The translations under genes and the position numbers were made by a program. Below, piece by piece: positions 31,153-48,733 of a stretch of 64,000 nucleotides of DNA. Location: assembly GCA_030867685.1 (NCBI GenBank), contig JAQOWU010000007.1, positions 620,001 through 684,000 on the forward strand, read 5' to 3'. Each line of letters starts with the position of its first letter. Position 1 is the first letter of the stretch. Below the pieces are notes generated by a model. That model saw only the letters and a program-made list of their open reading frames with translations, was not told where the DNA came from and ran no database searches. The stretch comes from Wickerhamiella versatilis (lineage: Eukaryota).

Positions 31153-32427
31153 ATGCATGTTGCAGATATCATCCGGCAAGTAAGGGATGGCTCGTCGGAG
31201 TTGACCAATGATGATATTCGCCAATTCGTTGGAGGATTACAGTCAGGAAAAGTATCAGAAGGGCAACTTGGTGCTTTCCTTATGGCAGTGCGTTTGCAAG
31301 GTCTTTCGGCATCGCTAACCGCTGAGCTTACTCTTGCAATGAGAGATTCGGGACAGGTTATCCAGTGGCCATCTACTGACGCCAAAATTATAGATAAGCA
31401 CTCCACCGGAGGCGTGGGTGATAAAACTAGTTTGATCATAGCTCCTATTGTGGCCAGTTGCGGTGTGTTGGTACCCATGATCAGTGGCCGAGGTCTTGGT
31501 CAAACTGGTGGGACTCTTGACAAGCTTGAGTCTCTCGAAGGTTTTAGAGTTGATCTCAGTTGTACAGAGCTTGTCAACCAGGTGAGCAAATTAGGGTTAG
31601 CTATTTGTGCGGCGGGTGTTGAATTGGCGCCTGTTGATGCGCAGATGTACGCATTGAGAGATGTTACAGCCACTGTTGATTCAAGTGCACTTGTAACGTC
31701 GTCTATACTTTCTAAAAAAATGGCTGAGGGTATTCATGGTTTAGTACTTGACATCAAAGTGGGTAAAGGGGCTTTTATGAAGACGCTTGAGGAGGCAAAA
31801 GAGCTCGCCAATTCGATCATCACTGCTAGCCGGTTTGCCAAAATCCGTATCACTTGTGTTTTCACCAATATGGATCGACCCCTCGGTAGGACAATTGGTA
31901 ACTCCCTTGAGGTTGCCGAGGCTTTGGAAGTACTTCAAGGTGGTGGATCAAAGGATCTTAAGGACCTATCTCTGGTATTAGCGAGGGAAATGCTAAAGCT
32001 AGCGGGTGTGCCGACTGAAAATGCAGAAAAGCAACTGGCCAATGGATCTGCTTTATCCAAATTCTCAGAAATGGTGCAAGCACAGGGCGGCACCGGCATC
32101 GACTTGAAACCTCTTGCAGCGTCTACACCATTGCTCAGCAATGTGTCTGGGTACGTTACCGAGATAGATGCTCTCAAATTGGGCTACCTTGCTATGCGGC
32201 TAGGTGCAGGACGTACTCTTCCCAAGGATACTATAGACCATGGCGTGGGGTTTAAGCTACATGTACAAGTCGGCGACAGTGTAGAATCTGGTTCGAAGCT
32301 GATTGAAATTTTCCACCGCAAGAGCCTTTCTCAAGAGTTCTGCAAGGAAACGTTACTAGCTTTTTCAATAAGTGATGAACCGTGTAATATAGATCCCCTT
32401 ATCTTAGATATATGGGATTCTTCGTAA
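31153..32427 (+). CDS. Thymidine/pyrimidine-nucleoside phosphorylase (NP-II family, DeoA/Pdp-like)
   Basis: DKHSTGGVGDK, PMISGRGLG.TGGTLDKLES, YALRDVTATVDS, SILSKK, LDIKVGKGAFMK and LGAGR....D.ID..VG. Confidence 0.95.
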   Translation: MHVADIIRQVRDGSSELTNDDIRQFVGGLQSGKVSEGQLGAFLMAVRLQGLSASLTAELTLAMRDSGQVIQWPSTDAKIIDKHSTGGVGDKTSLIIAPIVASCGVLVPMISGRGLGQTGGTLDKLESLEGFRVDLSCTELVNQVSKLGLAICAAGVELAPVDAQMYALRDVTATVDSSALVTSSILSKKMAEGIHGLVLDIKVGKGAFMKTLEEAKELANSIITASRFAKIRITCVFTNMDRPLGRTIGNSLEVAEALEVLQGGGSKDLKDLSLVLAREMLKLAGVPTENAEKQLANGSALSKFSEMVQAQGGTGIDLKPLAASTPLLSNVSGYVTEIDALKLGYLAMRLGAGRTLPKDTIDHGVGFKLHVQVGDSVESGSKLIEIFHRKSLSQEFCKETLLAFSISDEPCNIDPLILDIWDSS

Positions 32428-43722: not shown

Positions 43723-44835
43723 GGGCCCCCACCCCTAAGCCTATATTACGCGAGATATGATGTTTCGCGTGTCGGCGGATACAGGACATGATTTCATCGA
43801 TGGAATCCTTTCACTCCCCCAGGAATCATTTAAGTCACATTATGGAATTGAAATTCCTCGAGCCATATAAAAATAAATACGTAGGGACGATGCAGCCAAT
43901 TCCTAGCAGAAATTTTACTTTTATATCATACTTACTTAATATACTGCGGCGAGAATGGTGCCGTAAAACGCTGCGACTGTGGCTGAATTGCATTTCTGTG
44001 ACGCCAAAATTGATTCATGACTCGCAGATACCTTCGGCATAGGTACTTGATATTCGAAACAAGGTTCGTGCGACCGTCTTATTATAGCAATCTATTTGGT
44101 TTATTTGTGATAGAGTTCATGGATGTTTCCAAAATGAACACCTAATTAAGTTTGTTTTTCGAACATCAGTGGCAATTGGTCTCAGAAGACTTGCAATCAT
44201 TTGTTATATCACAGGTAATGCATTTATATCTAGTATGATATTGCTCATCATAGCCACGCGTCGTGTCCCCAGAAAAGCATCTATGAAAACCTAAACAATA
44301 TGACAGTACGTCAACACTACGTCATACGGTATGCTCCTCTCCTCCCGGGATTCGTGGCTGAGTGGGACTTTCGATCTATCTGTAGTGGTCACCCATAGGG
44401 TGAAAAGGACTGCACTATAGACCATTTGGGGTAGCTATCTGGATATGGAAGTTCTTAATTTATTTTATGCACCTTACTCTATGGGTAGCAAGCACGGGGT
44501 TGCCTTATCGACAATCATTACATAATAACGTACCATAACATAGTAATAAAATATACGCGACAGTAAGACCACCACCCCCGCGTTCGGACGCCGACTGTCC
44601 CTTTTCCACGTCTTAATATAGAAGTGGCTAAACTACGCGTCTGAGTGGCTCTGATGTCTTAGTGTCGTGTAATTATTTTCCATGCAGCTAATAATTATTT
44701 AAAGTTTCTAGTACCCAGGAGAGTGGGGGTACGGCACCTCGGGGCGTTCCATAGCTGACATAAGCCAACTGTCACTGCTAAATAAATAAGCCCCTCCGAC
44801 CCACACTAATTCCCAACTGCATTCTTGCTACCAAA

Positions 44836-45150
44836 ATGAGACTTTGGCTATTGCTAGCTGCGGCAGTGTATGCAGCTCCATTCGATGGGAGCTCGCTGGA
44901 GAAAAGGGCCGACAAGGAGGACTATATCATCGTATTTTCTAAGGGGTTGGACACACCAGACCGGGTTGTGCGGAGTCTCGAGGATTCCATTAAAGGCCAA
45001 GGTGGCCAAATTCACTACGAGTATCGAACGGTTATCAAAGGATTCAGTGTATCTATGGATCCATCGGCCATGGAACGGGTCAAAGCTATGAATGACGTTG
45101 ATTTCCCGTTTGTCGTGGAGGTTGACCAACAAGCACGAACTATGCTCTAG
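44836..45150 (+). CDS. Peptidase inhibitor I9 (Pbi2/YHR138C-like) with signal peptide
   Basis: Hydrophobic leader, LEKR, YIIVF, GG.I..EY..VIKGFS and VE.DQ. Confidence 0.8.
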   Translation: MRLWLLLAAAVYAAPFDGSSLEKRADKEDYIIVFSKGLDTPDRVVRSLEDSIKGQGGQIHYEYRTVIKGFSVSMDPSAMERVKAMNDVDFPFVVEVDQQARTML

Positions 45151-45543
45151 CGCAGGCGCGGAGATTTATGATATTATATTGAGATATTGAGCCTCGCGTT
45201 CGGGGAGATGGATTTGCATTTTATTTTCGTTCCCCGGAGGTAGAGGCAGAAAACCGTTACGTTAAATACCAGCATAATATATTTTCTTGAGGCTCGGAGC
45301 AAACGGGCCCGTTCTAACAAACTTTGACTAGGTTAGGAATAACGTATTGCTATTATATGTCCTATATATAGTCCTTATGGATATGGGTTACTGACAGCCA
45401 CCATAGAGCAACCGACGCGATGACGCATTTTAAGGGCACCATCCTGGTTGCAACTTACGTTTCATCCTATACATACATATCTGTCGGTCCTTTTAGCACT
45501 AAAATCTGTATTAAGGGCTTTTTATCTGATGCCTGAGACCTGC

Positions 45544-45912
45544 TCAGTCTCTTTCTAGGTTTATATTCTCCCTTCCAAATTTTGCGTACAGCGATTTCTT
45601 CAAGCCGTCCATTCGCGTGGCTTCGTCGTCAATTTGCGATTCACGCTTCTTCAAGCGTTCCTCCAGCCCCTCTTTGCGTTTTTCAAGACGCTCCATAACT
45701 TCTTGCTGTTTCAGATAGACAAGTGCGTCGCCAATGCGGTAAGGGATCTCTTCATCCTCGTCCACGAGTTCCAGCTCGAGTGAGACGTCATCCACAAGCT
45801 CCATCTCGGTCTTTATGGATGCAAGGGCATCTTCGTGACCATTTAGGCGGCTATTGAGCTTTGAAAACTCGTTTATATTCTGCTGCTCCGTCCAGGTCAC
45901 CTCGGTGCTCAT
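45544..45912 (-). CDS. GIM3: Prefoldin subunit 4
   Basis: EVTW.EQQNINEFSKLN, IPYRIGD and LK..LYAKFG..INLE. ATG at 45912. Confidence 0.92.
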   Translation of the reverse strand: MSTEVTWTEQQNINEFSKLNSRLNGHEDALASIKTEMELVDDVSLELELVDEDEEIPYRIGDALVYLKQQEVMERLEKRKEGLEERLKKRESQIDDEATRMDGLKKSLYAKFGRENINLERD

Positions 45913-46025
45913 GTAATCAATTAGTGCTTCGGTGAGTGAGACAGAAGCCGGTGCAAGGTGGCAAAAAATTAAAAAAAAATTGCATATAACCATATATATA
46001 TAAAAAATAATATAACTTAGCGAAT

Positions 46026-46457
46026 CTAGTTGGCGTCCTTCAAGGACAGGACCTCACCACGCAGGCGGCGAGCAAGCTCGATGTCCTTCTCCTGGATAGT
46101 GACACGCTTGGCGTGAGTGGCGCAAGCATTGGTGTCCTCAAACAGGGAGACGAGGTAAGCCTCAACTGCTTCCTGCAATGCACCAATAGCAGAAGACTGG
46201 AAACGCAGCTCAGCCTTGAATTCCTGAGAGATCTCACGGACAAGACGCTGGAAAGGAAGCTTGCGGATCAACAATTCAGTCGACTTCTGGTAACGGCGAA
46301 TTTCTTGCAGGGCAACGGTACCAGGCTTATAACGGTGAGGCTTCTTGACACCAGAAGTGCCAGGAGTTGACTTACGGGCAGCCTTGGAGGCAACCTGCTT
46401 ACGGGGAGCCTTACCACCAGTGGATTTCTTAGCGCGGACGTTCTTTGTGCGAGCCAT
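46026..46457 (-). CDS. Histone H3, divergent variant (143 aa)
   Basis: Full H3 fold ([45 protein letters not shown]) with many substitutions. It lacks the long N-tail and loop-1 insertion of CenH3. Confidence 0.97.
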
Positions 46458-47236
46458 CTTAACAACCCTGAATTATTAAAGTGGGAATTGCTGAGCTTTT
46501 ATACTCTGGTTGGGAGATTACATCACATTATTCCATCACGCGGAGATTCCACTTCGCTCACGTTAAGCATGTACCTTTAACTCGTTAGAACACTAGTTAA
46601 CAAGATCAAAGCATAGCCATTATCGTAGATTTGGATGGAATTAGTTTAATGAGCCTATACAAATAACCATGCATTGCTCTTGAGCTGTCTTATTTTCCTA
46701 TCGCCTATCGTCATTTAGTTTCGTGGGTTGGGGTCCTGATGATCAGAGAACACACATTATATAAGCAAAAGGTAAGTTAGGGCTTCTTTTGGAGGCAAGG
46801 CGAGTGCGAACTTAGCACAGGTGGGTGCCTTCATGGCCGTCAAATTCAAATAATTATAGTACGAAGTAAGCTCTTAATTTTCGTTTATGGCACTGGCGCT
46901 CTCATTGTGACAGTCAAATAACTATTTTTCTATTCATTCTAGCGACATGATATCCTTTAAAAGCCCATGCAAGAGGATAATACTTGAGAGCTGCAATGCT
47001 GTGTTCAATTTGGGATTGCTGGCCGAAATTTGTCGCTCACAGCCCCCATTTAGTTCAGATTAAAAGTTTAGGATCAGACCAAAAAAAAGTTTCCAATTAT
47101 TCACCGGTTGGAGTTTAGTGGGAACGTCTGGTACATCCCAGAGTCGCTCTATATCCCTCTCTTTGGCCAGCTTAACTTGCCACAAACCTCGGGACCTGAT
47201 AGTTTGACATAATCACTCAGGTCCAAGAAGGTATGA

Positions 47237-48622
47237 ATGCAGGCTCGCTTTGATGCGGTTCTCAGAAGAGTGCTTGGACTGCATCCCTCGCATAGAATAG
47301 GATTAGCTGTCAGTGGTGGTGTTGATTCGATAGTCTTGGCTTCGCTGGCCCAATCTTGGGCGCTTCCCCGGGGAATCTTCTTGCAGGCTTTTGTGATTGA
47401 TCATTTACTTCGTAAGGGTAGTTCTGAAGAAGCATTGAAAGTGGCGGAGCTACTTGAGAAGCAGGGAATATCTACCAATATCTTGAGAATGGATATGAGC
47501 GGTGCCGATCCCTCAAAAATGGAAGTTTTAGCGAGAGATGAACGCCGCAGGCTTCTGGAGCGTGAATGCAATAAGCATAAACTTACCACATTAATGCATG
47601 GCCATCATCTGGATGATCAGGTTGAACTTATGATCATGAGACTCTTGGGTGGCAGCGGATGGATGGGTTTAGCGGGTATGCAACCCTCCAGCTGGCTTTC
47701 TCAGGTATTGCCCCCAAATCTCCTACCGGTACGGCTTCTCAAACCTCTCTTAGGTTTTCGCAAAAAAGAATTATATGGCATCGCCGAGAAAAGGGGGCTT
47801 CGCTATTTTGAAGATGCGACGAACTATCAACCTATGTTAACTCGCCGAAACGCTATAAGAAAAATTCTTTCGGAGACTCCTCAATCTGCGCTGGAGTCTC
47901 TGTATCAGGCACAGCTGTTGTTTAACAAACAACGTACGCTAGTTACCTCCCAGGCCCTTCTAACGGATCAGGTTCTTCAGGCATCCGGGGATCTCAATTA
48001 TTCTAAACTGGAGGGCTCAGCAACGTTGGAAATACAATCTGATACTCAGCGGCTGCCGCCTGCTATTTTGACTCAATTACTTTACATGATAATTGCACGA
48101 TTGGCCCCCATTGATCCCTCACAAATTGCTTACCGGCGGCAGCCTATCGTACGCGAACTAATCCCCAGACTTCAACATAAAGTCTGGCCTTCATTCAAAA
48201 AGACACTTAGTGGCCTGGTAATCACGCATAGAAAGGGGAAGATATCTTTCGAGCGAGCCCCTCCTCGGGCCACTGAGCTGACAAGTGTTTCTGATGTATA
48301 TAATGCTACCCATTCCTGGTCCGAATGGCAATTATTTGATGGAAGATGGTGGCTTCGATGGCGCCTCCCTCCCAAGGACACCTGTGAGGTACGCCAGATC
48401 TCCATAAAATTATTAGGGCCTCATGCGGAAGTTATTAACAAAGTGTTTCAGCCCTCAACCCCTGTGGAAGCCTCGGCAGTTAATGCGAGCCAACCCTTCT
48501 TTATCATTCACGACGTTCGAGATCCATTTGGTATTTCTATGGATCGAGTCTTAGGGTGCCCAACCCTGGGGCATATGAGAGGATTAATGGTTGAAGCTAA
48601 ATTCAAAAGAATAATGTTTTAA
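47237..48622 (+). CDS. tilS: tRNA(Ile)-lysidine synthetase homologue (PP-loop ATPase)
   Basis: AVSGGVDS, IDH.LR, E..AR..R, HHLDDQ.E...MRL..GSG..GLAGM, PLL...K and ED.TN......RN.IR. Confidence 0.88.
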   Translation: MQARFDAVLRRVLGLHPSHRIGLAVSGGVDSIVLASLAQSWALPRGIFLQAFVIDHLLRKGSSEEALKVAELLEKQGISTNILRMDMSGADPSKMEVLARDERRRLLERECNKHKLTTLMHGHHLDDQVELMIMRLLGGSGWMGLAGMQPSSWLSQVLPPNLLPVRLLKPLLGFRKKELYGIAEKRGLRYFEDATNYQPMLTRRNAIRKILSETPQSALESLYQAQLLFNKQRTLVTSQALLTDQVLQASGDLNYSKLEGSATLEIQSDTQRLPPAILTQLLYMIIARLAPIDPSQIAYRRQPIVRELIPRLQHKVWPSFKKTLSGLVITHRKGKISFERAPPRATELTSVSDVYNATHSWSEWQLFDGRWWLRWRLPPKDTCEVRQISIKLLGPHAEVINKVFQPSTPVEASAVNASQPFFIIHDVRDPFGISMDRVLGCPTLGHMRGLMVEAKFKRIMF

Positions 48623-48733
48623 TGTAAATAGTGCGCGCGTGTTATGTGCCAATCAATCAATCTTATGGCTAGCAAAGATTAATAATCTAACAGACTCACA
48701 CTTTAGCGAATAGAGTGACTAATTTTTGTGGTC

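Follow-up and report, generated by a model that had tools for sequence, protein, structure and literature searches.

A diverged histone H3 gene of Wickerhamiella versatilis is probably one of several dispersed copies of an ordinary H3 remodelled across its yeast clade

Few eukaryotic proteins are as conserved as histone H3, which in fungi is commonly taken to be invariant. In the canonical nucleosome, R49 touches the DNA close to where it enters and leaves, residues 75-81 make up the surface patch around K79, and the H3-H3' four-helix bundle consists of residues 109-113 and 121-135, a face that is also held by Asf1-type chaperones. Candida albicans has an H3 variant that differs by few residues, and in centromeric H3 (CenH3; Cse4/CENP-A), the C-terminus runs past alpha3 with hydrophobic residues, loop L1 is longer, the tail is unrelated to that of H3, and the fold is less similar. 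Passages of a paper on histone evolution stress the conservation of histone protein sequences and describe a single H3-H4 cluster in Starmerella and in Yarrowia (PMC10917516). Further, the Wickerhamiella/Starmerella clade is presented, in part of another study, as one of three faster-evolving budding yeast lineages with reduced genome-stability gene sets (PMC12629084). In the literature searched, we found no account of a diverged H3 in Starmerella, Wickerhamiella, or related yeasts; supplementary tables may hold gene-presence data.

The window analyzed here, the whole 64-kb stretch of Wickerhamiella versatilis DNA (G+C 46.4%), carries on its minus strand an intron-free ORF that runs from ATG to TAG and encodes an H3 of 143 aa (Table 1). 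The protein matched the Pfam Histone family over residues 9-133 (E-value 5.7e-45; 152.9 bits vs. a cut-off of 26.4), and in a PDB sequence search the best 60 of 176 matches were all H3, H3.1, H3.2, H3.3, or similar (220-232 bits), with no CENP-A or Cse4 among these 60. The non-centromeric type assigned to the gene in the original prediction is thus borne out by both searches.

Table 1. Coordinates of the H3 gene, its flanking transcript features, and the paralogous pieces aligned to it (window positions)
Feature	Coordinates	Strand	Differences from window	Basis or source
Histone H3 CDS	46026..46457	-		ORF list, Pfam PF00125, PDB matches, codon bias, RNA depth
Upstream intergenic region, 780 bp, H3 promoter	46458..47236	.		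RNA depth, ORF list
H3 3' UTR, window copy	45982..46025	-		polyA-selected RNA run X23 end points
H3 paralog piece	46025-46284		45 in 260	7.3-kb contig, run X1
H3 paralog piece	46027-46104		11 in 78	25-kb contig, run X1
H3 paralog piece	46116-46284		15 in 169	run X1
H3 paralog piece	46272-46457		16 in 186	164-kb contig, run X1
H3 paralog piece	46272-46457		26 in 186	2.7-kb contig, run X1

Identity to conventional fungal H3 was 84-85%, and the sequence changes that had been predicted were all present in the translation and alignments. The N-tail is of the ARTK type with one extra residue between K4 and K9, along with R8 replaced by K, and STPGTSG precedes K36. Compared with conventional fungal H3, R49 is replaced by Q, the surroundings of K79 carry A75S, D77E, T80A, and D81E, the motif NACATH contains L109A and I112T, and positions 121 and 125 are acidic (K121E and Q/K125E). 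At the C-terminus, the final R-x of GERx is replaced by the extension VLSLKDAN. The equivalents of K4, K14, K27, K36, K56, and K79 were retained as claimed, and those of K9, K18, K23, and K122 were also present, with H113 and D123 unchanged. Codon use was as strongly biased as had been supposed, with AAG at 94% vs. 57%, CGT plus CGC at 100% vs. 40%, and GGT at 86% vs. 37% in the H3 ORF and 29 long window ORFs, respectively; CGT and CGC are the arginine codons favored in highly expressed genes. A CTG-clade genetic code was ruled out in favor of the standard code, the 5 CTG codons of the ORF all lying at leucine positions, 4 of them conserved in H3. An AlphaFold2 monomer built on a 16-row alignment (mean pLDDT 53.2) recovered the histone fold with helices at 50-66, 69-79, 88-115, and 123-132, and rendered the extension as coil with pLDDT below 50 at residues 138-143, a model too weak for the role of the extension to be read from it.

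We searched for relatives with scoring on residues 98-143 and obtained 753 H3-family clusters, only 3 of which (P0255, P0256, and P0257) matched via the extension. With the members of the P0256 cluster, these amounted to eight relatives of 153-161 aa (P0255-P0257 and P0346-P0350). All eight begin with ARTK[NH]V and have Q49, NACATH, acidic residues at both 121 and 125, and an extension of 8-9 residues of the form [VI][LF]..K[DE].. at the end. Of these, P0346 is annotated as histone H3 from Starmerella bacillaris and is represented by two accessions (GMM53124.1 and GMM53202.1; UniRef A0AAV5RQ03). In a comparison set of 208 other H3-family proteins, biased to fungi and to similarity with the query, Q49, acidic 121/125, and ACAT were each found in none. 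Position 49 was R in 184 of the 184 proteins with the motif, LCAI stood where the window has ACAT in 200 of 208, an acidic residue at 121 or 125 occurred in 0 of 138, and the protein ended three residues after RRLRG in 122 of 135. The absence of the near-invariant R49, L109, I112, and GERx from the window H3 is a departure of sequence and not of family, and the claim of lineage specificity holds, the derived residues being found in the eight Starmerella-type proteins and in none of the 208 others.

The N-tail insertion fared differently. It had been listed among the changes of this gene and is indeed present, but it is not unique, as it also occurs in four conventional H3s, three of 140 aa and one of 139 aa, with Trichomonascus, Sugiyamaella, and Blastobotrys among the sources; by this distribution the insertion predates the clade. 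In a maximum-likelihood tree of 16 sequences, the 8 conventional H3s were separated from the window H3 and 7 Starmerella-type proteins with support of 100/99, and the Starmerella-type group itself also received 100/99. The window H3 occupied an intermediate place on the line to Starmerella H3 with a terminal branch length of 0, and for this reason the protein appears to represent the ancestral H3 of the clade.

Several further pieces of H3 sequence were encountered. P0347, a member of the P0256 cluster, is a Starmerella-type H3 that NCBI assigns to a bacterial species, on a contig of 512 bp, and most likely represents yeast contamination of a bacterial assembly. In run X16, a contig covering 46053-46346 had 46 letters replaced by 67 at 46175-46222 (+21 nt), and its loose end decodes to IFSTKESN*; as decoded, this is a Starmerella-type H3 with a loop L1 insertion, and the two H3 types in run X16 probably derive from two yeasts. 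In run X15 (organism B, maybe more than one organism), the loose end of a piece before 46240 reads the conventional R-E-I-A-Q-D vs. R-E-I-S-Q-E in the window, and this piece represents conventional-type H3 mRNA alongside a near-identical relative of the window locus; it may stem from a further organism in run X15 or from an additional H3 gene of a relative. A scan of JGI metagenomes with a back-translated 12-residue H3 motif gave 0 matches.

The gene had been described as a stand-alone variant beside a conventional H3. We aligned the contigs of an isolate genome of the same organism (run X1) to positions 44800-48700 of the window at 80% likeness, a threshold that places H3 genes with less than 80% DNA identity to the window ORF outside the copy count. 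Three pieces with 0 differences correspond to the window locus itself, and five further pieces matched within the ORF only, each with 0 gaps (Table 1). Four of these five lie on contigs 2.7 to 164 kb long, in which similarity to the window breaks off exactly at the ATG or at the stop codon and gives way to unrelated sequence. Contig depth, when summed, was 44-62 over the ORF vs. 15.6-15.8 in the flanks; the genome thus has two further H3 loci of equal length, each with the C-terminal extension. With two additional gap-free, full-length loci at the detected level of at least 80% DNA identity, and with their decoded codons synonymous, the stand-alone description was abandoned.

The paralogs differ from the window ORF by 9-17% at the DNA level. 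Three consensus strings of paralog mRNA in run X23 (1351, 567, and 822 reads) read LKD at codons 139-141, ARRL at 129-132, and LP at 67-68; 9 of 9 decoded codons were synonymous with the window, none of them at 49, 75-81, 109-112, or 121-125. The in-ORF paralog differences that were displayed were likewise third-position synonymous in 7 of 7 cases, with at least 196 further difference rows. The exact 143-aa protein was located on 15 contigs vs. 5-10 contigs for five neighboring proteins, and no second member was found in its 90% cluster in a collection of 15 billion proteins. On account of the one-member cluster and the synonymous codons, the three H3 genes appear to encode one protein. We also weighed whether the copies might instead yield slightly different isoforms, the window copy being a minor and differently regulated one comparable to the H3.1/H3.3 pair. 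Such a division would fit a copy that is without an H4 partner and accounts for only about 15-17% of the H3 reads, and the paralog DNA, with 9 codons decoded, is divergent enough to accommodate it; yet a paralog whose product matched the window protein at 90-99% identity should have shown up in the 90% cluster, which holds a single sequence on 15 contigs, and both the synonymous decoded codons and displayed differences and the same-length, gap-free paralogs speak for one product. We consider distinct isoforms unlikely.

At the window locus, H4 is not adjacent, as had been noted. No histone-family match was found among the 44 other window ORFs of at least 85 aa, and tblastn for a second H3 in the 64-kb window returned the self match only, with all others at E above 6. 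The single H3-H4 cluster described for Starmerella and Yarrowia in passages of PMC10917516 fits the presence of extra, unpaired H3 copies. The 780-bp intergenic region upstream of the gene, in which ORFs reach 44 aa at most, is shared divergently with a PP-loop ATPase gene and not with H4. RNA depth is about 8,000 in bin 46372-46502 but below 8 in bins 46503-47157, which implies a 5' UTR of less than about 45 nt. The mRNA of the window copy ends at about 45989 and 45982, 37 and 44 nt past the stop codon, with 693 molecules of run X23 ending at 45989 (adjacent depth 1464) and 179 at 45982, and an A/T-rich TATATA tract lies just beyond these ends. Because the paralog alignments stop at 46025/46027, only the window copy has this 3' UTR stretch. 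The next gene on the 3' side of H3 encodes a prefoldin subunit, and between the H3 and prefoldin transcripts, at 45933-45950, RNA depth is in single figures.

The motif RTTCCN6TTCNC, which we take to be the Spt10-type histone UAS, was not enriched in the window (40 matches with at most 1 mismatch vs. 28.6 +/- 5.6 expected), and the two one-mismatch sites in the 780-bp region speak neither for nor against Spt10 control. A scan for bacterial-type promoters and terminators, a type of scan unsuited to yeast, gave nothing above shuffled sequences.

The genes around H3 are tightly packed at 45912-46025, where the likely start codon of the prefoldin gene (MSTEV..., about 45912) lies about 114 nt from the H3 stop. 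The PP-loop ATPase gene (47237-48619, plus strand) encodes 461 aa with PF01171, resembles tRNA(Ile)-lysidine synthase (TilS-like), and has an RNA depth of about 40. Behind it lies ILS1, the nearest named proteins to which are those of Starmerella bacillaris (67%), Blastobotrys adeninivorans (66%), and Trichomonascus vanleenenianus (64%); identity to the best cluster was 99%, and to any other at most 69%. The window DNA occurs in isolate assemblies and in food-fermentation and other metagenomes. Elsewhere in the window, a 424-aa pyrimidine-nucleoside/thymidine phosphorylase (31153-32424, plus strand; PF00591, PF07831, and PF02885) has its best solved relatives in the bacterial-type 2dsj_A (329 bits) and 1brw_A (310 bits), and thymidine phosphorylase chains of 474-482 residues scored lower (275-283 bits). 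The clade is reported to carry many genes of bacterial origin, and this phosphorylase gene may be another. A stand-alone 134-aa CoA_binding_2 domain protein is encoded at 1892-2293 on the plus strand (PF13380, E-value 3.6e-26).

In polyA-selected run X23, RNA depth was about 12,000 over the H3 ORF for all copies together, and about 330 over the prefoldin gene. Among the aligned reads, 47,688 of 64,946 were less than 95% like the window, which indicates that most H3 reads come from the paralogs. Four synonymous strain SNPs (46185, 46218, 46311, and 46380) were carried by 15.3-16.9% of the H3 reads, these being otherwise identical to the window, and depth in the copy-specific 3' UTR was about 1,460. 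From the SNP share and the copy-specific 3' UTR ends, the window copy contributes about one-sixth of H3 mRNA in this one RNA-seq run, a level about six times that of prefoldin, and the expectation that this gene is expressed was borne out by reads and 3' ends of its own. The RNA-seq strain has the same species label and differs from the window by at least 31 fixed differences over the 1,150 bp of flank at 44800-45950 (about 2.7%); the H3 ORF showed four fixed differences only, all synonymous.

A 452-nt contig of run X16 that reaches into the 3' UTR of the window copy had six differences from the window, 6 of 6 synonymous. On the assumption that roughly one random change in four is synonymous, the chance of this outcome is about 2 in 10,000; purifying selection acts on the gene, which is not in decay. 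The same data bear on whether the ORF could be a decaying duplicate on its way to becoming a pseudogene, or else a CenH3 of the Cse4/CENP-A type. The hydrophobic C-terminal extension, together with the lengthened loop L1 of the relatives, recalls CenH3, but the frame is intact, codon bias is strong, expression is high, the tail is of the ARTK type with the usual lysines, and similarity to conventional fungal H3 is close; with these properties, and with H3 proteins alone among the best 60 of 176 PDB matches, we rejected both the pseudogene and the CenH3 readings, which have very little probability left.

A different possibility is that a conventional H3, probably paired with H4, also exists in the genome and that the three copies form a multi-copy, lineage-specific variant family. 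An alignment at 80% likeness is blind to genes below that identity, and the REIAQD piece of run X15 is of just the conventional type; the isolate genome of run X1, however, yielded no partly aligned piece of this kind, whereas run X15 did. The mRNA depth of the remodelled type is that expected of a bulk histone, this type is the annotated histone H3 of S. bacillaris under two accessions, and the tree places the window sequence on the way to Starmerella H3 with zero private branch length. An additional conventional H3 thus seems improbable to us.

We consider it likely that the window ORF is an H4-unpaired copy, one of at least three dispersed genes detected at 80% DNA identity or more, of the clade's remodelled bulk H3. 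This family is multi-copy, with three loci in the genome contigs, and very highly transcribed. Judged from the sequences compared, the unusual residues would be alterations of the ordinary H3, fixed across the clade, and not marks of a specialized variant. The two same-length paralogs and the S. bacillaris annotation argue for a diverged canonical H3 in place of a variant, the distinction that the original prediction had itself drawn by asking whether this is the only H3 in the genome; this holds, as a reading short of proof, for copies of at least 80% DNA identity. The special geometry that had been foreseen for readers of K4, K9, and S10 falls away with it, since models made for a variant do not apply to a gene read as ordinary bulk H3.

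As a copy of the bulk H3, the gene would be transcribed from the 780-bp region into a short polyadenylated mRNA, the two paralogs supplying the rest of the H3 mRNA, and its product would pair with H4 and build normal nucleosomes, as extrapolated from the canonical structure. By reference to the canonical nucleosome, R49Q would remove one DNA-end contact in the alpha-N helix, and A75S, D77E, T80A, and D81E would retune the surface patch around K79. L109A, I112T, K121E, and Q125E, together with the hydrophobic extension, would fall on the alpha2-alpha3 face and may change the H3-H3' bundle and the grip of chaperones. As these changes lie on the bundle and chaperone face, they suggest altered tetramer stability and chaperone hand-off rather than altered tail-reader logic, and the effect is most likely on tetramer and chaperone behavior and on DNA-end contacts, not on tail readers. 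In the Starmerella-type relatives, a loop L1 insertion comes on top of the same changes. In S. cerevisiae H3, RTT101-dependent ubiquitination is described, in part of one study, as falling mainly on K122 and also on K121 and K125 (PMC7746308). The window H3 keeps K122, and its neighbors at 121 and 125 are acidic. The main text of PMC12629084 does not name DOT1, SET2, RTT109, HST3, RTT101, MMS1, MMS22, RTT107, ASF1, or CAC1, and RAD9 appears in its reference list only; its supplementary tables might bear on loss of these genes.

These results correct the first reading of the gene, which is probably no special variant, and present what is probably the ordinary, highly expressed H3 of a yeast lineage, one that is altered at positions invariant in about 200 other H3s sampled and that carries a clade-conserved C-terminal extension. 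The clade thereby offers a natural experiment on how much change is tolerated in the core of the nucleosome, at the tetramer interface, and on the face bound by chaperones. A broader proposition, which we advance tentatively and hold to be rather doubtful, is that Wickerhamiella/Starmerella and close kin have rebuilt the core of their only bulk H3, with nucleosomes and an H3-H4 hand-off physically unlike those of all model eukaryotes. If this were true, R49Q would stand for a weaker DNA-end contact, L109A, I112T, K121E, and Q125E for a slimmer and more acidic H3-H3' and chaperone face, and the conserved hydrophobic C-terminal tail for a gain, to which Starmerella adds a CenH3-like L1 insertion. 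H4, Asf1/CAF-1, and the enzymes directed at K79 and K121-125 would then have co-evolved or been lost, and there might be a link to the clade's fast evolution and reduced genome-stability gene set.

Among the known H3 types, the closest are the Starmerella-type proteins, comprising the S. bacillaris H3 (P0346) along with P0255-P0257 and P0347-P0350. These share with the window H3 not only Q49 and NACATH but also Q[DE]KD[IV][DE]L and a C-terminal [VI][LF]x[x]K[DE]xx extension, and at 153-161 aa they are 78-83% identical to it. In contrast to the window H3, they have a loop L1 insertion of 7-8 residues (..ELRDGFGDNKPDFRF), TPRKS instead of AARKS at K27, I89L, and V96A. The conventional H3s of Trichomonascaceae (Trichomonascus vanleenenianus, P0108; Sugiyamaella lignohabitans and Blastobotrys adeninivorans, P0105 cluster) are 85% identical overall to the window H3 and have the same insertion in ARTKST[IV]ARKST, but they differ from it in R49, IAQDFKTDL, NLCAIH, QKKDIQL, and a GER[AT] end, and in extra residues before GGVKK.

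The best PDB match was 4kud_A, which we take to be a Saccharomyces cerevisiae-type H3 in a solved nucleosome (232 bits, E-value 1.4e-68, residues 1-135). The histone-fold helices and H113/D123 are conserved between the two, whereas the window H3 has about 20 residues substituted, one inserted in the tail, and 7 added at the C-terminus; its last eight residues, which form the extension, lie outside every PDB alignment. The likeness to CenH3 consists of the hydrophobic C-terminal extension in the window H3 and of a longer L1 in the Starmerella-type relatives only. Unlike CenH3, the window H3 combines an ARTK tail and a loop L1 free of insertions with multiple gene copies and mRNA at the level of a bulk histone.
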